Assembly: GCA_903847975.1 (NCBI GenBank)
Contig: CAINFC010000294.1
Span: 811-64,810, forward strand
Direction of reading: 5' to 3'
Source of the DNA: an uncultured Acidobacteriota bacterium
GTDB lineage: Bacteria > Acidobacteriota > UBA6911 > CAINFC01
Length of the DNA: 64,000 nt
Shown piece after piece: positions 27,340-58,700 of this stretch. The stretch's first letter is position 1; each line of letters opens with the position of its first letter. The position numbers and the translations under genes are program-made. Under the pieces are notes generated by a model. That model searched no databases. It had not been told where the DNA came from and saw only the letters and a list, made by a program, of their open reading frames with translations.

Positions 27340-29358
27340 TCAGCAACCGACCGATTTTCGCTTCTTCGGGGTTGGGAGTGGCGGGGTGGGTGCCGTGGAG
27401 GCGGGGCGAGGAGTGCTGCTTACCCCCGGCACCGCCTGCGGAAGAGCACTGCCGCTGGGTAACGGCACGGTGCGAACCGCGACCTTCAGTTCGCTTTCCT
27501 CCCAAAACGCTTCCAGCCCGCCATGCAGGGCCTTGATCGGGCGCTTGGTTCTTTGGGAAAGAATGCCGGCTGCCATCATGGCCAGTGAACCGTCGCGGTC
27601 CACGAGGATCAAAGGACCCGCTCCCGTGAGGTAGCCGGGATTTTCCAAAACATCGGCGAGCTCGGCTCGTCGCGAGCCTGGCAGGGCGTAATCTTGGAAT
27701 GCCTCCGGTGGGCGTATGTCCACCAGGTCGAACGTGCCCGGCAGATCTTTGATTAATCGGCCCAAGTCCGCCGGTGAAATGCGTTCTGCAATCTGAATCT
27801 GGCGTTTAGGGGCGGAGTCGGTGGCCTTCTTTTCATTCCCGTATACCGGATAGCCTGCGTCAATCCACGCTGCGCTGCCACCAGCCAGGCTGGAGACGTT
27901 CTTGAATCCTTTCCGCTGCAGGATGCCCACTGCCAGGCTCGACCGGTAGGCGCTGTTGCACACCGCGACCACGGGAAGATTCGGATCGAGTTTTCCTGAC
28001 AACTCGGCCAGGTGGCTGATCGGCAGGTTTACTACCGTGCCGATGCGGAGGGCCATCCATTCATATGGCATTCGCACGTCCACGATGATCGGCGCACTGC
28101 CGTTTTTCATCTGCTGATAGAGATCCGCGGGGGTGATGGTTCCGCTCGAGGCCAGCGGCAGCCCCGCTTTTTTCCAGGCATCAAAAGGCAACACCCGTCC
28201 GCCGTAGGCCACGCGATGCAGGCGGAACGTCGCTTCCTTCAACTCCTCCCCGGACCCTATCAACACCAGCGGCGATTTCCAGGGTACCATTGTTCCGACC
28301 CAGGTTTCCAATCGGCCCCGCAGGGCGATGTTTACGGAACCCGGCACATGTCCGGCGGCGTAGGTTTTGGCCTCACGCAAGTCCACCAGCCATTGCCCGG
28401 CATCCTTGGTAATTGACTCCTCGGCTTTGGCGGTCGCCGGGGAAGCGTTCCAATCCACCAGGGGTGGCCCGGAGCGGTTCATAGCTGCGTTGTGTTTGAA
28501 ATATTGGGGTGCTTCCGGCAGGCCTTCCAATACTGCTGCGATGAATTCACTGCGGCCCTTTTTCTGTAGGTAGGGGTTGGACGATTTTTCCCGGCCAATG
28601 GTTGAGGATGGATCATCAGACAGATTTGCACCGCACAGCGATCCTGCGCCATGGGCCGGCAGAACCAGGACGTTATCCGGCAGCTTGGAAAGTTTGTTGT
28701 GCCATGTGTCGTAACTCATGGATGCCAGCGTGGCGGCGGTCATGGTGCCTTCCAGCAGATCGGGGCGTCCAACGGATCCCACGAACAGGGTGTCGCCTGT
28801 GAACATGGCACGCGGCTGAGTTTCCCGCTCGCTGCTGACCAGGCCGCACATACCGTCAGGCGTGTGACCCGGCGTAGGGATGGCTTTCACAGTGGCTTTG
28901 CCCACCCGGAATACCGAGCTCTCCTGAAGCGGCTCGATTTTGTATTGCGCACCGCTTGCGGCGTTTTGATAAATGGGTACGTTCAATGCCCGGACCGCCT
29001 CGAGATGGCCTGCCAGGAAGTCGGCATGCGAATGAGTGAGAAACAATCCCTTGATCGTCAAAGTGTGCTTTTTCGCATAGTCCATGTACCCCTGGATGTC
29101 ACGGTCCGGGTCCACCAGCACCGCCTCCGATCCGGAGACCAACAGGTAGGAATAGTGACTCAGCACGGGTAGAGTAAACTGTACAATTTCAAATCCTGGG
29201 AACCGGTAGGTATCCACGATCTGGTGGAAGGCGTCTTCGGTGCCGTGTGAGGCGGACTCGGTGTCCTTGATCTGCGTTTTATCCCCCTCCGGCACCGCTC
29301 CACCCGGAATCAGGAACGAGAGAAGAGCCATGACTTGAATGTAAATGCGCATCTTCAT
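27340..29358 (-). CDS. MBL-fold persulfide dioxygenase-like enzyme fused to rhodanese domains (CstB-like), with signal peptide
   Basis: Metallo-beta-lactamase motif FLTHSHADFLAGH. Followed by rhodanese modules (active Cys in VAVCNSAYRSS). N-terminal MKMRIYIQVMALLSFLIPGGA signal peptide. AAGGAA lies upstream of ATG 29358. Confidence 0.8.
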   Translation of the reverse strand: MKMRIYIQVMALLSFLIPGGAVPEGDKTQIKDTESASHGTEDAFHQIVDTYRFPGFEIVQFTLPVLSHYSYLLVSGSEAVLVDPDRDIQGYMDYAKKHTLTIKGLFLTHSHADFLAGHLEAVRALNVPIYQNAASGAQYKIEPLQESSVFRVGKATVKAIPTPGHTPDGMCGLVSSERETQPRAMFTGDTLFVGSVGRPDLLEGTMTAATLASMSYDTWHNKLSKLPDNVLVLPAHGAGSLCGANLSDDPSSTIGREKSSNPYLQKKGRSEFIAAVLEGLPEAPQYFKHNAAMNRSGPPLVDWNASPATAKAEESITKDAGQWLVDLREAKTYAAGHVPGSVNIALRGRLETWVGTMVPWKSPLVLIGSGEELKEATFRLHRVAYGGRVLPFDAWKKAGLPLASSGTITPADLYQQMKNGSAPIIVDVRMPYEWMALRIGTVVNLPISHLAELSGKLDPNLPVVAVCNSAYRSSLAVGILQRKGFKNVSSLAGGSAAWIDAGYPVYGNEKKATDSAPKRQIQIAERISPADLGRLIKDLPGTFDLVDIRPPEAFQDYALPGSRRAELADVLENPGYLTGAGPLILVDRDGSLAMMAAGILSQRTKRPIKALHGGLEAFWEESELKVAVRTVPLPSGSALPQAVPGVSSTPRPASTAPTPPLPTPKKRKSVGC

Positions 29359-29396
29359 AACGAGATTCCTTATATGGGACAAGCCGGCAAAAAGTA

Positions 29397-29463
29397 AACG
29401 CGGCATCGCACCGCGTTCTTCGCGTTTCCGCAAACCCAACAACCACGCGGTTGGAAGCCGCGT
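29397..29463. promoter_or_regulatory. Two tandem palindromes ACGCGG-N7-CCGCGT upstream of the sulfur operon
   Basis: AACGCGGcatcgcaCCGCGTT at 29397-29417 and ACGCGGttggaagCCGCGT at 29445-29463. Both lie 40-105 nt upstream of the persulfide dioxygenase start at 29358. Confidence 0.4.
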
Positions 29464-29761
29464 CTATGTTCAAAAGACCGACTTTTTGCGTACTTGTGAT
29501 AATTGCCAACTCATTCATGCAAAGTGGATAGCGACTGAAGTATGGGTTTTGGAATCACCAGGTAAGCTTCCTGTGCCATCCATGCAAAAACAAAATGGTG
29601 AATAAAAGATGTGCTTTCTTTCCACTAATACCCTACTTGATAGTCGCTATTTTTGTCAAGAGAAAAAATTGGGGTGCAGGCCTGAGAAATTATGCTAATA
29701 CTTGAAAATAGGAGAGGCGCGTGATAACCTAGTAGTATATACATACTAGGATAGGGGTTAC

Positions 29762-30130
29762 ATGTCTCTCTCTTCAAAAGCCTTGCTCTGGCAAAAGATA
29801 ATTGCTTTAGATCCGATCTGTTCCGGTTCCCTTCATGAGCAGTATTTGCCTTGTGGAAAATCAAATTGTCAATGCAAAAATTCCCAACATCCCCAACGGC
29901 ACGGTCCTTACTACCTTTGGGTTCGTCGTCTGAACGGCAAGCAAGTGAATCGAACTCTAAAACCCGGTCCGGAACTGGAAAAGGTACGAAAAGGCATTGC
30001 CAACTACCAGTTGTTACAGTCCTATTTGGGTCAGGTGTTGCTGGAAGATGAAAACCGAGTCTTGGAGCCGGATCGTGCTTGGATGGGGGCTACTAAAAAA
30101 AACTTCAGATGGAAATTGCCGAAGTCTTAG
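29762..30130 (+). CDS. IS orfA: zinc-finger-like N-terminal transposase fragment
   Basis: 122 aa. Cys cluster CSGSLHEQYLPCGKSNCQCKN. Basic and HTH-like remainder. Its end overlaps orfB. Confidence 0.4.
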   Translation: MSLSSKALLWQKIIALDPICSGSLHEQYLPCGKSNCQCKNSQHPQRHGPYYLWVRRLNGKQVNRTLKPGPELEKVRKGIANYQLLQSYLGQVLLEDENRVLEPDRAWMGATKKNFRWKLPKS

Positions 30131-30585
30131 AACAACATTTGCAGGAATTTGAATTACCGGAAGCCGAGCAGTTGCAAGAGGTCGATGCGGGAGCCGAAGA
30201 AGAGCTGTTTCGTCGGATGGGCCAGCAGGTGGTGTGCCAAAAACTGGGCCAACGGTGGCAAGCAGCCGATCAGACCAAGGAGGCCCATTGTTCCCAATGT
30301 AAACAGAAGATGAAAGCCCTGGGTAGGCGGCCGAAAAGAATTCATTCCCTCTGTGGTCCAATCAATTATGCCCGCCTTACCGATCAATGGGCTTTGGAAC
30401 ATCATTTGCCGGTGGGTTCCGGAAATGTGGAATCGGCGGAACGGCACATTGTCCAATTACGATTCAAACAATCCGGCATGCGGTGGTCGGACCAAGGCGC
30501 CCGGGATATTCTCCATTTGCGTACTCTACATCGCAGTGGGCACTTTGAACAGTATTGGGAGGATTATGCCGCGAGCGGCTTCTGA
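30109..30585 (+). CDS. IS orfB: transposase C-terminal fragment (ISKra4/UPF0236-like tail)
   Basis: 158 aa in the -1 frame relative to orfA. Zinc ribbon CSQCKQKMK...SLCGPI. C-terminal SGNVESAERHIVQLRFKQSGMRWSDQGARDILHLRTLHRSGHFEQYW resembles, from memory, the conserved transposase tail of that family. No DDE core is present, so the middle is deleted. Confidence 0.4.
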   Translation: MEIAEVLEQHLQEFELPEAEQLQEVDAGAEEELFRRMGQQVVCQKLGQRWQAADQTKEAHCSQCKQKMKALGRRPKRIHSLCGPINYARLTDQWALEHHLPVGSGNVESAERHIVQLRFKQSGMRWSDQGARDILHLRTLHRSGHFEQYWEDYAASGF

Positions 30586-30905
30586 TCGATAACTTTTCAG
30601 GCCTGCACCCGCGCCCTTTTATATGCTAGATTCTACTGCAAATGCGTGGTAGAATATTGGGACCATGATTTAAACGGTAAATTGATCCATCATTGCATAT
30701 TCCTGCATCTTTGAGCAGATGCCACCGTAGGGGGCAATAATGATGGAACCGGGCGACCTTGATTCTGAATCCGCTCGCCGATCTATCAGCGAAGAGGAAG
30801 GTACCCCTGGTGATACGTTTATCGTGATCGGCTTTTGGATTCGACAGAAAACATCGGCCGAAATTCCCTTCAGAAAAACATCCCGTCAAGGCGTAAGGAG
30901 GGGCT

Positions 30906-33900
30906 ATGGCAAGCCACGCTTACTGTAAAGCGGTTCATCTTTTTCTGACCATCCTACTGCTGTTCAGTCAACTGCCCGACAGAGCGAAAAGGCCAAGAAC
31001 CCAGTTTGTCGATACCCAGTCAAAACACGGACCGCTGCCTGAAACCGTCGAGGCAGCTTTCGCACGGAAGCCGGACACCCCGGTCCTGCCCGCCGGCACC
31101 GGAACCGACTGGTGGACCGCAGCGAGAGCCGACATTCTACGCGCAGAGTATTACGTGACCTGGCAGGAGAAAACCAATTTAGCGGATGTACCGGCGGCCT
31201 TTCAGGCCCCCAACCGGGCACAGAATCTGCGAACCTACTTTACAGCGAAAGGGGCGCGGCTTATTCCACGGGAGTTCCCGAGCCAAACCCCTCCCTGGCA
31301 ATGGGGGCTTTCGCTGGTGGGTTACGGGAACACCGGCGATATTCGGCCGGCAGCCAAGGCCCTTCTGAGCGCAAAGGGTAACCGCATCGAGTATCGTCGC
31401 GATGGCCTTACCGAGTGGTACATCAACGACGAACGCGGACTGGAACAGGGCTTCACCCTTCACCGGCCACCCGCGCCTGCCTCGGCTGCTGCCAGCAACT
31501 CCATGGCCCATGGTACGATTGCACTTGAATTGGCAATCGCCACCAATCTCACGGCCAGCCTCAGCGCGGAAGCCATGGGCGTGGATTTCATGACTGAGAG
31601 CGGGGCAATCGCCTTACGCTACGGCCAATTGAATGTGGTGGATGCCACCGACCGCAGTTTGCCTGCCTGGATGGAGCTTCCCCCAGCGGGACCGCATGAT
31701 TCATTTCCCTTGCGATTGGTAATTGACGCTTCGGAAGCTGTCTATCCCATTACGGTTGATCCACTGACCTCCAGCCCAAATTGGACGGCGGAGAGCGATC
31801 AGGCCTCTGCCTATTTCGGTCGATCGGTTGCCACCGCTGGTGACGTCAATGGGGACGGCTACAGCGACGTCATCGTCGGAGCATACTATTACGATAATGG
31901 GCAGGTGAATGAAGGGCGTACCTTCCTCTTTTACGGTTCGGCCGCAGGGCTTTCGGCCACGGCCAATTGGACGGCGGAAAGCGACCAATCCTCTGCTTAT
32001 TTCGGTCAATCGGTTGCCACTGCCGGCGATGTGAACGGGGACGGCTACAGCGACGTCATTGTCGGTGCACCTTACTATGACAACGGAGAGGGGAATGAAG
32101 GGCGGGCCTTCGTCTATTACGGTTCGGCTGCAGGGCTATCAGCAGCGGCGAACTGGACCGCAGAGAGTAACCAAACTTCTGCCCTTTTCGGTCAATCGGT
32201 TGCCACCGCCGGCGATGTAAATAACGATGGCTACAGCGACGTCGTCATCGGCGCCCATTTTTACGACAACGGGCAGACGGATGAAGGGCGGGCCTTTCTT
32301 TTTACTGGATCGGGGCAAGGGTTGTCTTCAACACCGAACTGGACGGCGGAGGGCGATCAGGCTATCGCCTATTTCGGCGCGTCCGTGTCGACGGCCGGTG
32401 ATGTGAACGGGGACGGCTACAGCGACGTCATTGTCGGGGCCGCCAATTACAGCAACGGGCAAACCAACGAAGGACGGGCCTTCATCTATCATGGCGCGGC
32501 AAACGGGCTGTCCACGACGGCCAGCTGGACGGCGGAAAGCGACCAGGCTTCCGCCTATTTTGGGGTTTCAGTGGCAACGGCCGGGGATGTCAACGGGGAC
32601 GGCTACAGCGACATCATTGTCGGAGCGTCCCATTACGACAATGGGCAGACGAATGAAGGAGCGGTTTTTGTCTATCAAGGGTCGTCAGGGGGGTTACCCG
32701 TTACAGCCAACTGGACCGTAGAAAGCAATGGGGCCAACGTACGCTTTGGGGCATCGGTTTCGACCGCCGGCGACGTTAACGGCGACGGCTACGGAGATGT
32801 CATTGTGGGAGCATATTTGTATGAGGATAATCCACCCGTTTCGCAAAGTGAGGGGGTCAGGGAAGAGGCCCATGGGGGAAGGGCCTTCGTCTATTACGGA
32901 TCGGCGGGAGGCCCATTGAGCACCGAATACTGGACGGTGGGAAGTGCTCAGGCAGGCGCATATTTCGGCTTATCCGTGGCTACGGCGGGAGATGTCAACG
33001 GCGACGGCTACAGCGACGTCATCGTCGGTGCAGCGTATTACGATGGCGGTCAGACAGATGAAGGGAGAGCCTACGCCTATTACGGATCGGCCACGGGCCC
33101 ATCAACCGTAGCAGCCTGGACGGCCGAAGGCGATAAGGTATCGGCCGTTTTCGGTTACGCGGTGGCTTCGGCCGGGGACGTCAATGGCGACGGTTACAGC
33201 GACGTCATTGTCGGCGCAGCTACTTACGACAACGGGCAGACGGATGAAGGCCGGACCTTCGTTTATTATGGATCGGCCGCGGGACTATCAACCGTCGCGG
33301 GCTGGACCGCCGAAGGCGACCAGGTATCGGCCGGTTTCGGTTACTCGGTGGCAACGGCCGGGGATGTAAATGGGGACGGCTACAGCGACGTCATTATCGG
33401 AGCCCTCGGATACAGTAATGGAGAAACGAGTGAAGGCGGGGCTTTTGTCTATTATGGTTCGGCAGAAGGGCTTTTCGCCGTGGCGAACTGGATCATGGAA
33501 AGCAATCAGGTATTTGCCAAATTCGGCGTCTCGGTGGCTACGGCCGGGGATGTAAACAACGACGGCTACAGCGACGTTATTATCGGGGCGTATTTCTATG
33601 ACAACGGACAGACGGATGAAGGTCGGGCCTTTGTGTATCACGGCTCGGCGACAGGGCTTTCGACTACGTCCAACTGGATAGCGGAGAGCAACCAGGCATC
33701 TGCCTATTTCGGGATTTCTGTTGCGACAGCCGGTGACGTTAATGGCGACGGCTTCAGCGATGTGATCGTCGGCGCCGAAAACTACGACAACGGGCAGGCA
33801 GATGAAGGCCGGACATTTGTATATTTCGGCTCTCCGTTAGGGTTGTCATCCACGGCGAACTGGGCTGTGGAAAGCGACCAGGGTTCCGCCTTTTTGGGTG

Positions 33901-36900
33901 CCTCGGTGGCGACCGCAGGGGATGTCAACGGCGATGGTTACAGCGACGTCATTATTGGGGCTCCGTACTATAACAATGGACAAGACAACGAAGGATGGGC
34001 CTTCGTCTATCACGGCTCGGCTGGGGGCCTTTCCACTGCTGCCAACTGGACGGCGGAGAGCAACCAGGTGGATGCACGTTTAGGTGAATCCGTTGCGACA
34101 GCAGGCGACGTCAACGGCGATGGCTTTAGTGATGTTATTGTCGGAGCCTGGCTGTATGATAATGGGCAGACCAATGAAGGGCGGGTATTCGTTTTTCACG
34201 GCTCGGCGTCAGGATTACCTGCTGCAGCGGATTGGACAGCCGAGAGCGACCAGGCGCTTGCCGATTTCGGCAAGGTCGTTTCCACGGCCGGCGACGTCAA
34301 CGGGGACGGTTACAGCGACATCATCATCGGGGCACCCTGGTACGATCGAGGGCAGATGGATGAAGGTCGGGTGTTTCTTTATTACGGAAATGCGGGAAAT
34401 GGGCTCTCCATCCTCCCACGACAAATGCGTACCGATGGATCGCGACCGATCTCTTTACTTGGAAGATCTGATTCCGCCACCTCTTTTCAATTGCGTCTGA
34501 CCGGGCGCATGCCGCTCGGCCGAGAGGATGCCAGGCTTCAATGGCAAGTGGCCCCTCCAGGCAGTTCCTTCAATTCGCCGATTGCCATCAGCGGCACCTC
34601 CGAGTGGACTGATTTACGACCTGGTGGCACCCTTCTCTCCCATAACGTCACAGGACTGAATGCTGCGACACCGTACCACTGGAGGGCCCGTCTTCTCTAT
34701 CGACCAGGGAATCCTTTGGGGCTTCCAGCGAGCCGCTGGTTCCACTCCGCTCTAAACGGTTGGAACGAGAAGGATTTCCGCACATCACAGATGCCGCTGG
34801 GTGCTTTTAACAAGACCAGCCCGACCAACGGAGCAACCTCTACCACCACCAGCCCCACGCTTTTCTGGTCCCCCAGCGAGGGCGCTGCCGACTATGCCTA
34901 CTGCTACGACACCTCAAATGACAACACCTGCGGCGGCTCCTGGATCAGTGCCGGTTACAGCGTCAGGGCGGCTTTGACCGGCCTCGCCCACGATACAACC
35001 TACTATTGGCAAGTGCGGGCTGGCAATTCGGAAGCCACCATCTTTGCTAACGCCGGCACCTGGTGGGGTTTCACAACCAATATTGCGCCACCGCAGGACT
35101 TTAGCAAGTCATCCCCAACAAATGGCGGCGCCGGTGTTGCTACTAATCCGACGCTCACCTGGAGTACCAGCCCTGGGGCGGCATTCTATGAGTACTGCTG
35201 CGACACCTCGAACGACAATGCCTGTAGCAGCTGGGTGAGCACGGGGGCGGTTACCCGCGCCACCATCAGCGGGCTGTCCAACGATACAACCTACTACTGG
35301 CAGGTGCGGGCCGCGAATGGCGGGGGCAGGACCTACGCCAACACCGGAGCTTATTGGAGTTTTACCACGCAGGGTCTACCGCCGGCGGCCTTCTCGAAGA
35401 GTGCACCCCCAAACGCCGCCACCGGCGTTGCTGTCAATCCTTCTCTTTCCTGGGGCACCAGCGGCGGCGCGACCAGCTATGAGTTCTGCTACGATACCAC
35501 GGACGACAACGATTGCAGCACTTGGACCAGCACTGGCACCCATACCAGTGTCGGCCTAAGCGGGCTGTCCTACAATACGGTCTACTTTTGGCAGGTGCGG
35601 GCTATCAACGCGGGTGGAAGCAGATACGCCAACGATAGCAGCACAGGTTTCTGGAGCTTCAGAACTCAAGCGGAAGCCCAGGTTTGTACCTTTATTGTAA
35701 CGCCGTCATCGGCCTCCGCTTCGGCAGCCGGTGGGCCGAGCCAGATCAGCGTTGCGACCGGGGCAACGTGCTCATGGTCGATAATCAATCCTGCGTCGTG
35801 GATCTCGTTCCCTAGCCCTGGGCCCTTCACTGGCCCGGGAACCGCCGATTTTAGCGTTGCGGCGAATCCCAACGGAACGGCTCGTAATGTCATCATAACA
35901 ATCGCCGGCCAACCATTTACTCTTTCACAGGAAGGCGCTGCCTGCCATGCATCTCTCAATCCGCTCTCTGCAAATGTTGCTGCCGGTGTCGCAACCGGCA
36001 CAGTAAATATCTCCTATCCTGAAGGTTGTGCGTGGCAGGCCACCTCAACGACAAGCTGGATTACAATTTCCTCCGGCTCGACTGGTACAGGCAGCCGATA
36101 TCTTACGTACGCTGTGGATGCCAACTATGGCGCAGCCATTCGGACGGGAACCATAGTGGTGGGTGGTGTCTCCATTGAAGGCTCCCTATTCACTATCACA
36201 CAAGCAGGAAAAGTATGCACATTCGGCATATCTCCTCCAAACATGACCAGCATGGCTTCGGGGACCTCAGGTAAAATAACAGTATCCGCTCCGCAAGGAT
36301 GTTCCTGGCAGGCTTCTTCTGACGTGGCGTGGATATCTGTTACCTCGGTTGCGTCGGGTGGCGGAAGCGGGTCGGTGGACTACAATGTTCAGGTCAACAC
36401 GATGGATACGCCCAGAATAGGCACTTTGTCGGTAGCTCACCGTACCTTTTATGTCTATCAATCAGGTTCGACAGCGACACCTTCCTGTACCGTTTCGGCT
36501 ACCCCAACCGTCATTCGGAGCACCGGGCTAGCGGAGTTGACAGGTGAGCTGGCGATTCACTGCATTAATGTTCCGCAGGCTGGAATCCCTGCAGATATCT
36601 ATGTATCCCTAGGGGCGAATGTTACAAACCGCCTGCTTATAGAACCCGACTACACAGATGCCCTGCTATTGCTCAATAATCCCATGTCACCCACTCCGGG
36701 TATCAATGCATTCCTGGGTGTGGCAGCCGGGTATAACATTTTGCGCTGGCCCAATGTGATCCTAAAAGGGGAAGCGGACGGTAAAGCAGGAATGCGCATC
36801 ACCAATATGCGCGTTAACCCGACCATCCTGAGCGAGGCAAGTGCGATATCCGCCGTCGTCGGTCTTCAGAGTCGCACGGTTATTCCTATTGCTAACTCGA

Positions 36901-55760: not shown

Positions 55761-58700
55761 CTATCTCATCAGCAGCGGCAGGTAGATCCACGTGTAGGTT
55801 CCTTCCCCGGCAAGAGAAATCTGGATAACGGAATGGTCCGGGTCGTTGGAAGGCATTGTCAGCAGAGCGCTTCGGCCGGTCAGGGCGGATGGCTGAAAGG
55901 CCACGCGGACCGTGCAGTTGGCCGAGGGAGCCAGCGTCCTGCCGGAGCAGGGATCCTCGAGGATCTTAAAATCGGCGGCATCGGCTCCCGTTTTGCCGAT
56001 CGAACCGATCACCAGGTTCTGGGTCCCGGTGCTCAGAATGTTCACTACTTTATCGGGTGATGTCGCCCCGCGGGGAACCTTCCCGAAATTGAGGCCCGTC
56101 CCGCCATCCGATAACATAACCACGATGTTGGTTGGGCTTTCGGTGGTGAAGGTCCAGGAGTAGGCCGCAGCCATAGGGTTTCCGGCCTTGTCCCGGATCC
56201 CGCTGCCCAGCGTGGCCGTGTAGGCGGTCGAGGGAGAAAACGCTTTGCCAGGCGCGAAGAAAGCCGTCCAGGTCGCTTCGTTATAGGTTACCGTTCCGGT
56301 CATGCCCCCGCTCACGGAAAAAGTCGATGCCGTCAGTGTGGCGGAATCGACAGGTTCCGAAAAAGTGGCCCGGAGGTTCGGCGCATAGGTGCCCGACCCC
56401 GCCGACACCGGGTTCGGATCATAATGGATGTCGCCGGCATTGGCTTCCGGGAAGGTGCCGGTCACCGCAGGAGGAGCGGTGTCGGCGGAACCGGGATGGA
56501 CGGCGATCGCCACCCGGGCCGGAACGCTGTCCGTCGACCCGTTGCGGACCAGGTAGTAAAATTCATCCCCGCCGCTGAAGTTCAATATGGACGTGTAAGT
56601 GATGTCGGGCGGTGTTCCGGCGAGGGTCCCGAAAGAGGGCGGCCGGGTGATGCGGTAGGTCAGCGGCACGGATCCGCTGTCCCGGCCGCTGAGACGAATG
56701 GAGGCGGCTACCGCCGAGGTTGCGGTCACCTCCTTGGGGTCGGCGGCAAGCCAAGCGACCCGGTTGGAAACCGGATTGGTCGGCGTAATCTGATTGACCG
56801 TCGGGAAGTAGACCTTGGCCAGATTGGTGATTTCCGTTCCCGCAGCCGCGCTGGTTTTCACATGGACGCGGAAGGTTACATATCCTTTGCCGTGGGCAGC
56901 CAGGGTGCCGATCTCCCAGCCCAGGAGCCTCGATGCGCCCGAATAGGTGCCGCTATTGCCGATAGACAGAGTGGCCTCATCGAGATTGGGGTCCAGTTCG
57001 TCGAGGACGAATACGTTGTAAGCCGTGCCTTCCCCCAGGTTCTCGTAGTCGATGCGGTAGGTGAGCGACTGCCCGGGGATTACCTCGCCGGCAAAATCGA
57101 CCGACTTGGCGTTGGGGTCGTCCGGCAAGGTCGCTTCGGTCACGATTTTAGTAATATAAGGCTCGCAGGATATATTCGGGAAAGCCCCCGGGAGTGCCCG
57201 ATTTCCCCGGAAGCGAGCCGTACTGCTGCAGGGTTTGCCGCAGTGAGGCTCCGGAGTTTCAATGCACTCGCAATACTGGCAAATTTCCTGTTGGCTTCGA
57301 TCGAGGACCCACCGGGAGCCGGTGCTGTCCACCCGGCAGACGCTGACATCGACTTTGGTAGCCAAAGGGCGCAGGAAAAGCCACAAAGCCCAGACGGCAT
57401 CGATATTGCAGCTGCGGCGCGTTTCCGATGGCTCACATGCCCAGGTGTTGGGGGCCATCCTGCAATCGCCGATACACTTCTCGATGCTGCCGGCAAATCT
57501 GGGGTACCTGTTCCGATTGACGTCGATATACATACGGGCGCAGGCCGCGCAGCTGGCCGGATCCTTTTTCCCTTCTTTCATGGCTGCCTGGCAGGTGAGG
57601 CAATCCCTGCTGGTCTGCCTGAACTGCTTGGTCTGCATGTAATGGTTCCATTTCGGATTGTGGAACAGGCAGTTATAGGTGCACTTATCCCGCTCCTGGC
57701 TATGGGCCACCGCCCAGGTTCCCCAGCCCCGAAAGGAGTTGTCGTTCCAGTCCTCCCGGAAACCGCCATCCTGGTCGAAAAGCGAGTAGGCGCTGTCCTC
57801 ATATTTTTCCAGGAAAGCGTTGCTCCCGGCTTTTTTGAGAAAAACCGGGCTGGCCTGCGGCGGGTTCAGGAATGCCAGCACCAGGTTGGAAGAGCCATCC
57901 GACAAATCGTAGCGCCGGGCCACCTGGTCGAAGGAAAATCCCTGACTCAAAGCGTAATCGTACAGTCGCTTCAGCTCCGGGTCCCCGGCAAGGAGGGCGG
58001 AAATCTCCGTGGGGGTGTAGGATTTTTCGGACAGCGTCTGAACGGGAACATAATTCAGGTAGTCGGCCGCCACCGTGCTCGAAGTAATGTTTTCGGCCGT
58101 CATGTCGACATACATCTCGATTTTCTGATGCAGCGGCAATTCCCAGGGGACTTCCATTTTCAGGGTCAATATACCTTTGGCTCCCGGGCTGAGATGGCCC
58201 AGCTTCCAGAATACCTGGTGCCGGTCGTCGCGATAGATTCCTCCCTGCGAGCTGGAATGATAGGTGAAATCACCCGGAAGGTAGAAAATAGCCACGGCAT
58301 TCTGGATGGTCTGCGCCAGGATGTTGTGATACTCGACCAGAAAAGTGGTCACTTCTCCCGGGGTGACGTAGCGGTATCCCCAGGCATAAATCAGGCTGTA
58401 TTCGGGGATCAGAGCCTTTTCCGGGAAAAGCTTAGGGTGGGCAAACGTCCCGTTGCCGAGCTGCCCCGAATCATTCCACCCGCATCCCCAGACGGTGCCG
58501 TCTTTCTTCACCAGCAGGGAGTGGTATCCACCGGCTCCCGCTCCGCTTACGGCGGTCAGGAATCCGCTGGGATCCAGGGGATCTTTCATTCGCGTCGCTA
58601 CAATTTTGTTTTCCTGCGCCCCGCTGCAGAGCTGCCCCCCGTTGTTGGCCCCCCAAGCCCAGGCACTGCCATCGTTTTTCACCGCCAGCGAGAAGCGCCC

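Follow-up and report, generated by a model that had tools for sequence, protein, structure and literature searches.

The segment from 29672 to 30610 of the window (the whole 64-kb stretch of DNA analyzed here) is a defective insertion sequence of 939 bp. We put the probability at about 0.92 that it is the dead remnant, shortened by an internal deletion, of an element of the ISKra4 family, the family of the prokaryotic Mutator-like group 4 (p-MULT 4) transposases, which is divided into the ISAzba1, ISMich2 and ISKra4 groups (Guerillot et al. 2014, PMC3942029).

Termini and internal deletion

The extent of the element and the parts of its transposase gene are as follows.

29672..30610, + strand: whole defective insertion sequence, a 1747-bp element minus 807 bp and with a 1-nt loss in the leader
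29672..29693, + strand: left terminal inverted repeat (IRL), GGGTGCAGGCCTGAGAAATTAT; same terminus in L002, L004, L103 and L104
30109..30585, + strand: ORF2, 158 aa, in which transposase residues 1-85 continue in frame with 355-427
30363..30364, + strand: deletion junction, with the dinucleotide CA common to both breakpoints
30430..30432, + strand: retained codon for the Glu of G-N-V-E-S, predicted third catalytic residue, corresponding to E377 of the intact transposase P0127
30589..30610, - strand: right terminal inverted repeat (IRR), ATAACTTTTCAGGCCTGCACCC on the + strand; identical in L103 and L104, near-identical in L004 and L011

The terminal sequence GGGTGCAGGCCTGA has perfect matches in the 64-kb window only at 29672-29685 (+) and 30597-30610 (-), bearing out the perfect 14-bp termini that a sequence-only reading had reported. 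Beyond these 14 bp the inverted arms stretch to 22 nt with 91% complementarity (20/22), and they form the longest inverted repeat of the region. The repeats run GGGTGCA...TGCACCC, a terminus type found in 49 relatives, and the family consensus of the left terminus reads GGGTGCRCGCC..AAAGTTAC. Homology to another assembly (L002) begins at most 3 nt from the left terminus and the full-length relatives L004 and L103 have near-identical termini, so both boundaries are independently confirmed. The low GC content noticed earlier was also found (0.49 vs. 0.60 for the window), and the two flanking intergenic stretches are likewise low, at 0.44 and 0.47.

An intact 1747-bp relative, carried by L103 (L103:369-2115) and by L104, aligns to the window copy in two blocks at 96% identity. 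The L103 element encodes P0127, a transposase of 427 aa. Compared with it, the window copy lacks 807 bp (269 codons, in frame; positions 693-1499 of the L103 element) and with them residues 86-354 of P0127, which confirms the earlier description of an internally deleted, nonautonomous insertion sequence. The catalytic layout of P0127 consists of D194 (D1), D264 (D2), D285-H288 (the D(2)H motif) and E377. The deletion takes out D1, D2 and D(2)H together with the predicted terminal-repeat-binding region (N2), and of the family's catalytic series (D, D and D(2)H, then E after a long helical insert), the window copy has the E segment alone. The earlier statement that no DDE core is present thus holds for the first three motifs and fails for the tail, which keeps the G-N-V-E-S segment with the predicted third catalytic residue. 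We assigned this role to its Glu because the distance between D264 and E377, 113 aa, fits the insert of 99-138 aa described for these transposases (PMC3942029). The motif YHAAEHL was considered as the site of the catalytic Glu and rejected; the same description (PMC3942029) identifies it as the D(2)H motif and puts the Glu in the retained tail.

Against the model of ISKra4 transposases (NF033572, curated cutoff 205 bits), ORF2 scores 74.9 bits, matching the model ends only, and a conceptual OrfA-OrfB fusion scores 72.1 bits. Intact relatives score above the cutoff (P0002, 214.4; P0003, 217.1; P0006, 244.6; P0127, 214.6 bits). With ORF2 below 205 bits and the 96% identical P0127 above it, the window copy is a truncated member of the family by descent and not a functional one.

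A tblastn match to the transposase tail at 58511-58600 (E ~0.08) falls inside a 1294-aa gene on the opposite strand and was taken as chance. The 20-nt right end had no exact match among JGI metagenome contigs, and a scan of species-representative genomes found three Acidobacteria relatives.

Frameshift site, OrfA and decay of the window copy

The leader, the first reading frame and the site at which the two frames meet comprise the following features.

29702..29730, + strand: putative element promoter, -35 TTGAAA (29702-29707), 17-nt spacer and degenerate -10 TAACCT (29725-29730)
29725..29753, + strand: conserved palindrome overlapping the -10, family form TATCCTAGTA-N7-9-TACTAGGATA, one pair broken in the window copy
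29754..29757, + strand: weakened ribosome-binding site GGGG (GGAGG in relatives; 1-nt deletion in the window copy)
29762..30130, + strand: ORF1, an OrfA of 122 aa with DUF6788 (Pfam PF20586, E 1.9e-21)
30095..30103, + strand: frameshift site AAAAAAAAC, A_AAA_AAC in the ORF1 frame, with the A8 run at 30095-30102

ORF1 had been regarded as a Cys-rich N-terminal fragment. Nearly all of its 98 homologues are 119-122 aa long, making 122 aa the standard length, and ORF1 is a complete OrfA. The protein has a Cys/His cluster (C20, C31, C36, C38 and H47) and a long C-terminal helix; in a structure model (pLDDT 84.6) the Cys cluster is part of a sheet accompanying the long helix. A fold search of the PDB yielded nothing better than E 0.2, and we therefore left OrfA without a fold assignment. 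The papers of the searchable literature library contain no mention of DUF6788.

The -1 relationship of the two overlapping frames (29762-30130 and 30109-30585) was read correctly from the start. The -1 frame opens at 30097, directly after a TAA, and the OrfA-OrfB fusion, as read in the family, would be 274 aa long in the window copy. An A8/A9-CT motif lies at a fixed distance in ~80 relatives with the A8 run invariant, and the transposase frame of L012-L014 lacks a separate start codon close to this run. The -1 overlap is the native, conserved frameshift site of the family rather than damage. RNAalifold found no conserved structure downstream of the A-run among 52 nonredundant sequences, and for want of such a stimulatory structure slippage of RNA polymerase on A8/A9 would be an equally good mechanism.

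Upstream of ORF1, we infer the element promoter from its sequence; a stricter consensus scan calls neither this promoter nor the one in the right flank. When read against ~40 relatives, the -10 of the family is TATCCT, from which the window copy alone departs with an A at 29727. In the palindrome that overlaps the -10, 9/11 pairs stay paired via two-sided changes among 29 relatives, with almost no G-U pairs. The single indel, at element position 84/85, is the 1-nt deletion in the ribosome-binding site. Only the window copy carries mutations in these three features (the -10, palindrome and ribosome-binding site).

The coding parts differ in how they have changed. Relative to the intact relative, ORF1 shows 13 nucleotide differences and one amino acid difference, whereas nine nucleotide differences in the tail of ORF2 cause seven amino acid changes (Fisher p = 0.0015), three of which strike positions invariant in 53 relatives. 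Between the two copies in the population, ORF1 differs at eight nucleotides with no amino acid change. Decay has affected the tail as well as the -10 box and the ribosome-binding site.

Oriented insertion upstream of promoters and comparison with known systems

Beyond the right end of the element lies a further feature.

30627..30655, + strand: host promoter-like site, -35 TAGATT (30627-30632), 17-nt spacer, TGgTAGAAT, -10 at 30650-30655

The -35 hexamer TAGATT, a weak match (3/6), stands 16 bp from IRR, and the site faces an ORF of 62 aa (30740) and the FG-GAP gene of 2531 aa (30906). In the right flanks of 46 relatives, positions 17-21 read TTGAC (T in 32/46 at position 17) and a promoter-like site is found at offsets 14-18 in 15/46, against 0.94 in shuffles; their left flanks have no such peak. 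The signal is strong across the clade, and the window copy, with an offset of 16, fits it; having the right end 16 bp ahead of a sigma-70-like -35 box is the insertion preference of the whole clade. Perfect 9-bp target duplications were found in 6/49 relatives (2e-4 expected by chance), and CTGTTTTCC is common to the left flank of L104 and the right flank of L103. Two circular unitigs, i.e., minimal contigs of the assembly graph (L005 and L006), are 1774 nt long, the length of a 1765-bp element whose right end is separated from its left end by a 9-nt spacer.

An intact element is ~1.75 kb long, with 22-bp terminal inverted repeats beginning GGG, a putative promoter overlapped by the palindrome, and a 122-aa OrfA (DUF6788) followed by the A8 slippery run. 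A -1 shift at A8, either ribosomal or through slippage of RNA polymerase, fuses OrfA to the 427-aa DDE transposase frame. Elements of the clade insert one way, with the right end 16 bp upstream of a sigma-70-type -35 box, and generate 9-bp target duplications; they form a junction in which 9 nt lie between the abutting right and left ends. In the window copy, the 807-bp in-frame deletion at the CA microhomology removed the predicted repeat-binding region and most of the catalytic core.

In the ISKra4 family the terminal repeats measure 18-39 bp and conserve a C at the terminus (5'-G...C-3'), the target repeats are of 8-9 bp, and circles with spacers of 6-10 bp have been described (PMC3942029). 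The close intact relatives of the window copy pass the NF033572 model and show the D-D-D(2)H-long insert-E layout; the 22-nt repeats in the window are within the family range and end ...GCACCC as in ISAcce1 (PMC3942029). The relatives have 9-bp target duplications, whereas the window copy is without a duplication and without the 269 codons. At the level of groups, the ISKra4 group has been credited with promoter targeting and the ISMich2 group with frameshifting, two ORFs being present in the latter and a conserved -1 frameshift restoring the transposase (PMC3942029). The window copy and ~80 relatives share this two-ORF arrangement, while insertion ~16 bp upstream of -35 boxes is known from several ISKra4-group members. 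Compared with these published descriptions, the clade unites a trait of each group. Its targeting is also oriented and involves the right end only, whereas the 13 ISKra4-group elements reported have promoters on both sides (PMC3942029).

Outside the family, the closest resemblance in targeting is to TnGBS and ISLre2 (p-MULT 3), which insert 15-17 bp upstream of sigma-A promoters and are oriented as here, with the right end ~16 bp from the -35; promoter-targeting p-MULT elements are defined by insertion 13-17 bp upstream of a sigma-A -35 box, and the window copy lies at 16 bp. They differ in transposase family (61-107 bits with the ISLre2 model, cutoff 200), and, unlike them, the element studied here has no conjugation module and a frameshift-dependent transposase. 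The IS3 and IS1 families, in which OrfA and an OrfAB fusion arise through a programmed -1 shift on an A-rich run, have the same short OrfA, A-run shift and -1-frame fusion, but their transposase fold is unrelated and the clade has no conserved downstream stimulatory structure. Internally deleted derivatives and MITEs share with the window copy the intact terminal repeats, the missing catalytic core and a length below 1 kb; in contrast to MITEs, which are recognized by several dispersed copies with flanking target duplications, the window copy is found at a single known locus, without a target duplication or evidence of amplification. The circular unitigs are similar to IS256-type circular intermediates, although they represent a relative with ~73% OrfA identity, not the window copy, and may instead be a tandem dimer.

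Genomic context and status of the copy

We found no target duplication at the window copy, where the earlier reading had suggested one be sought: the left flank is AAAAAATTG and the right flank GCGCCCTTT, and the alternative left flank in other assemblies, CTATGCTTG, does not provide one either. Only the window's own arrangement connects the sulfur operon with the FG-GAP gene across the element, whereas other assemblies break inside the element or switch the left flank. The adjacency of sulfur operon, element and giant FG-GAP gene may be something other than the original insertion site, namely a mis-join or a strain-specific recombinant of two copies sharing an identical internal segment; we regard this as possible though doubtful. 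In its favor, the contigs of five samples (L015-L019) enter the element from the sulfur operon and end at 29765-29971, contigs entering from the right begin within it, at 29789 and 30087, and in three contigs (L002 and two further ones) the same deleted element has a 1114-aa FG-GAP gene on its left; moreover, L002 differs from the window at 29686-29968 only and is identical over 29969-32053, and neither left flank forms a target duplication. Yet a public contig of 78,391 nt carries both the sulfur-operon protein and the 2531-aa protein, as does the window, and each junction singly is reproduced at 99.9-100% identity in independent assemblies. Public gene calls start the sulfur gene at the ATG at 29358, the longest ORF beginning too far upstream. 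The proposal that the insertion separated the sulfur operon from a former regulator has no support, as the right end of the clade targets promoters, here that of the FG-GAP gene, and the left flank differs between assemblies; no remnant of a regulator is visible.

Having lost the predicted terminal-repeat-binding region, D1, D2 and D(2)H, the window copy is unable to transpose by itself, but it keeps both ends and could in principle still serve as a substrate for an intact cognate transposase. That full-length copies in the same genome currently mobilize it in trans as a living, MITE-like nonautonomous element, as had been suggested, seems very improbable to us. The two terminal repeats have stayed intact and match those of L103 exactly, closely related intact multicopy elements exist in nature, and the same population contains a second, longer copy (P0004 contig; second left arm). 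The transposase of that copy, the sole other one in the same samples, is nevertheless truncated at 233 aa, before D2, and a search with the conceptual OrfA-OrfB fusion as query found no full-length transposase in those samples. All seven contigs with the exact ORF2 protein have one right flank, the 64-kb window holds no second copy of the element, and the target duplication is absent. The search for full-length copies that had been proposed turned up intact relatives in unrelated samples only; neither a sign of movement of the deleted copy nor an intact copy in the same population was found. Marginally less probable still is that the pair of frames has been domesticated, with OrfA alone or the catalytically dead 274-aa fusion retained as a DNA-binding regulator that inhibits related elements or acts on the FG-GAP promoter. 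The deletion preserves the frame, and both ORF1 and the fused frame have remained open, which may reflect selection for a residual function; the OrfA model with its Cys-cluster sheet and long helix is confident. The near-absence of amino acid changes in ORF1, both against the intact relative and between the population copies, could be seen in the same light, but is equally expected from divergence between active lineages before the insertion. Against retention stand the damaged -10 and ribosome-binding site of the window copy, the nonsynonymous changes gathered at invariant positions of the tail, the position of N2 inside the deletion and the occurrence of the protein in one closely related population only.

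We thus prefer the reading of the window copy as a dead ISKra4-family element. For the source genome, it is a fossil of little importance, left by a past insertion in front of the giant FG-GAP gene's promoter, and its two ORFs are better annotated as a pseudogenized ISKra4-family element than as two hypothetical proteins. Assemblies, and possibly strains, differ at the element, and contiguity across 29.7-30.4 kb should be treated cautiously.

The relatives make plain the construction and the insertion preference of this group of elements. We tentatively suggest that they could form an undescribed lineage of the ISKra4 family, combining a -1 shift on an invariant A8 without a stimulator, which could mean slippage of RNA polymerase, with insertion 16 bp upstream of promoters in strictly one orientation; in that case DUF6788 would be an OrfA autorepressor acting on a palindromic operator over the -10, and the OrfA of the window might survive as a regulator. 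For annotation, DUF6788 can be taken as the OrfA component of ISKra4-family transposases that depend on a frameshift, and with their invariant A8, 9-bp duplications and -35 box at +17, the relatives provide a clean data set on promoter-targeted insertion and A-run recoding.

Descent and lost core of the element

The 939-bp element is bounded by GGGTGCAGGCCTGA, which a search of the window found as a perfect match at the two element ends only; the inverted arms, 22 nt when extended and matching at 20 positions, are the longest inverted repeat of the region. Perfect 14-bp inverted termini, two overlapping open reading frames (ORFs) in a –1 relation and low GC had been proposed from the sequence alone, and all three were borne out. 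The ORFs overlap by 22 nt, and the GC content is 0.49 compared with 0.60 for the window, the adjoining intergenic DNA being likewise low (0.44 and 0.47).

Features of the element
29672–29685 (+), left terminus
29762–30130, ORF1, 122 aa
30109–30585, ORF2, 158 aa, –1 frame relative to ORF1
30597–30610 (–), right terminus

ORF1, earlier taken for a Cys-rich N-terminal fragment, turned out to be a full-length DUF6788 protein (PF20586, E 1.9e-21) of the same length as its homologues: nearly all of the 98 found are 119–122 aa, on short contigs typical of repeated elements. We found no mention of DUF6788 in the searchable literature. ORF2 scored 74.9 bits on the curated ISKra4 transposase model NF033572 (cutoff 205, passed by full-length homologues of 427–433 aa) and aligned only at both model ends. 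Against the full-length homologues, it consists of residues 1–85 and the final 73 residues, fused in frame. Through a cluster look-up we found P0127, an intact 427-aa transposase (214.6 bits on NF033572). Its element, 1747 bp long and identical on the contigs L103 and L104, has the ends of the window copy. The window copy matches this element at 96% identity in two blocks, which places a deletion of 807 bp (269 codons) between 30363 and 30364, with the dinucleotide CA common to both breakpoints.

The published layout of Mutator-like transposases comprises N2 (binding the terminal repeats), D1, D2, D(2)H, a helical insert of 99–138 aa and E (Guerillot et al. 2014, PMC3942029); mapped to it, the catalytic positions of P0127 are D194, D264, D285–H288 and E377. 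The deletion of residues 86–354 removed the expected N2 position, D1, D2 and D(2)H, but the tail kept in ORF2 still has the G-N-V-E-S segment. The sequence-only claim of a missing DDE core was thus essentially right, except that the third catalytic position survives. The window copy shares the terminal repeats, the –1 two-ORF layout and the promoter-proximal right junction with its close relatives; they score above the transposase model cutoff and have catalytic D1 and D2 and a 9-bp target duplication, all of which it lacks. It is a truncated ISKra4-family member by descent, and as a feature of the window an ordinary insertion-sequence relic.

Copies and flanks in the population

No second copy was found in the window. 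The exact ORF2 protein is present on seven public contigs, with identical right flanks in all and a varying left flank: on three contigs, L002 among them, a 1114-aa FG-GAP gene lies left of the deleted element. L002 matches the window from 29669 on, with 14 differences in 29686–29968 and identity from there to 32053. Contigs of five samples (L015–L019) cover the junction between sulfur operon and element with 99.9–100% identity and end at 29765–29971, while those from the right side begin at 29789 and 30087. On one contig, the arm with the 1114-aa gene is joined to a longer element form with a transposase frame (P0004) that ends at 233 aa, before D2. Given the contig breaks, the two left arms and the longer form, the population has at least two copies with an identical internal segment, the 939-bp form and a longer, also broken form. 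By these short-read assemblies, either left arm may belong to either body; one public contig of 78 kb has the sulfur gene together with the 2531-aa FG-GAP gene, arranged as in the window.

The 9-nt flanks of the window copy, AAAAAATTG and GCGCCCTTT, differ, so that the target-site duplication sought there is absent, and no 9-bp duplication results when the right flank is paired with either of the two left flanks. The likely history is recombination between copies, or a deleted form born from two copies.

Two copies of one relative, L049 and L051, have the left flank AATGGTAAACTA in common and unlike right flanks, with a 9-bp duplication in L051 only; they are either a further case of flank exchange at such an element or a chimeric assembly. 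Within the 2531-aa gene, internal repeats of ~186 bp (70–75% identical) occupy 31779–34400, and at 32054 L002 switches to another repeat unit, which makes short-read assemblies unreliable in this region.

We found no support for the suggestion that the insertion parted a former regulator from the sulfur operon. Just upstream of the sulfur-operon gene start lie a 22-nt inverted repeat and a hairpin, which could be a leader or attenuator (29396–29466). Public gene calls start that gene at ATG 29358 (– strand), and its longest ORF (TTG 29442) runs across both.

29395–29416 and 29445–29466, 22-nt inverted repeat
29418–29396 (–), terminator-like hairpin followed by a T-run

Frameshift, leader and decay

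We compared the frames in the window, L004, L011–L014 and 80 JGI metagenome loci. Wherever the OrfA and transposase motifs were both found, the transposase frame was –1 to ORF1. A run of A8 (68 loci) or A9 (10 loci) followed by CT lies 95–96 nt before the GAEEEL motif, and the –1 frame opens exactly at this run, directly after TAA; in L012–L014, the transposase frame lacks its own start codon near the run. The database protein P0005 reads straight through (...GKKKLQE...), as the predicted OrfA–OrfB fusion does. By these patterns the –1 overlap is native to the family, not damage, and we conclude that the transposase is made as an OrfA–OrfB fusion by a –1 shift at the A run, which would be either a ribosome slip (A_AAA_AAC) or an extra A from RNA polymerase. 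RNAalifold on 52 nonredundant sequences gave no conserved structure downstream of the run. P0053 (147 aa), a DUF6788 homologue with 70% identity to ORF1 on an 83.8-kb contig elsewhere, has an aberrant N terminus and no longer contains the shift-site residues KKNF; this protein is probably left over from a further element of this type, in a related genome.

In the leader common to the relatives, a 17-nt spacer separates a –35-like TTGAxx from TATCCT, and a palindrome, TATCCTAGTA-N7-9-TACTAGGATA, leads into GGAGG. In the window copy, TAACCT and GGGG stand in place of TATCCT and GGAGG, and one palindrome pair is broken.

29725–29753 (e.g., L004:54–82 and L103:422–450; ~40 loci), palindrome between putative –10 and ribosome-binding site

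The palindrome varies among subclades yet stays palindromic, with 9 of 11 pairs compensated on both sides and almost no G–U; this covariation is as much in keeping with a DNA operator as with an RNA hairpin, or more so. The palindrome is a candidate autoregulatory operator, at which OrfA may have a role. The OrfA model (pLDDT 84.6) consists of a short helix, a three-stranded sheet with a Cys/His cluster and a 40-residue helix, and a fold search of the PDB gave no significant neighbor.

Differences of the window copy from the intact L103 element
ORF1: 13 nt differences, 1 aa change
First 85 transposase codons: 6 nt differences, 2 aa changes
73-codon tail: 9 nt differences, 7 aa changes

The tail differs from ORF1 in this respect (Fisher p = 0.0015), and three of its changes (Y to D, L to F and Q to R) fall at positions invariant in 53 relatives.

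Insertion ahead of promoters

Ends were definable in 49 relatives, mostly 1716–1772 bp long with the terminal consensus GGGTGCRCGCC..AAAGTTAC. Perfect 9-bp target duplications flank 6 of the 49 (2e-4 expected by chance), and CTGTTTTCC flanks the element on the left in L104 and on the right in L103. In two samples, a full-length relative (~73% OrfA identity) forms circular unitigs, minimal assembly-graph contigs, of 1774 nt with ends overlapping by 30 nt (L005 and L006); they consist of a 1765-bp element and the 9-nt spacer TGCTACATT joining right end to left end, a junction also present in L007.

Right end/spacer/left end junction
L005:1419–1487
L006:1–69
L007:1397–1465

The samples with this junction also show at least three other right flanks. 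The unitigs come either from a transposon circle or from a tandem dimer; the spacer fits the 6–10 bp published for circular intermediates of the superfamily (PMC3942029).

In 46 right flanks (L004, L008, L011–L013 and 41 JGI loci between L020 and L099), positions 17–21 favor T (32/46), T (25), G (25), A (20) and C (19), and positions ~40–46 are –10-like. A promoter-like site starts at offsets 14–18 in 15 of the 46 (shuffled flanks: mean 0.94, maximum 6), and the same positional scan of the relatives' left flanks gave no such peak. Judged from these flanks, the clade inserts in one orientation, with 16 bp between its right end and a downstream –35-like TTGAC.

Beside the window copy, TAGATT starts 16 bp past the right end, in a site pointing at a 62-aa ORF and the 2531-aa FG-GAP gene.

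30627–30655, promoter-like site: –35 TAGATT (30627–30632), 17-nt spacer, TGgTAGAAT (30647–30655)

The –35 match is weak and a stricter promoter scanner made no call. The flank nevertheless fits the promoter-offset pattern of the clade, and the right junction therefore looks like the original one; the position of the element ahead of the FG-GAP promoter reflects the insertion preference of the clade. The 62-aa ORF (30740–30928), gene-called in every assembly, follows the proposed promoter, overlaps the start of the FG-GAP gene by 23 nt and has no protein-family match.

Both traits of the clade are known already (Guerillot et al. 2014, PMC3942029): it has the conserved –1 frameshift in common with the ISMich2 group, and oriented insertion ~16 bp upstream of sigma-A promoters with TnGBS, ISLre2 and some ISKra4-group elements. 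For the ISKra4 group, promoter targeting is reported on both sides, whereas this clade targets promoters in one orientation at its right end only. The clade unites the frameshifting assigned to the ISMich2 group in that paper with the oriented promoter targeting assigned there to the ISKra4 group. This union in one clade and the assignment of DUF6788 as OrfA add modestly to what is known of the relatives.
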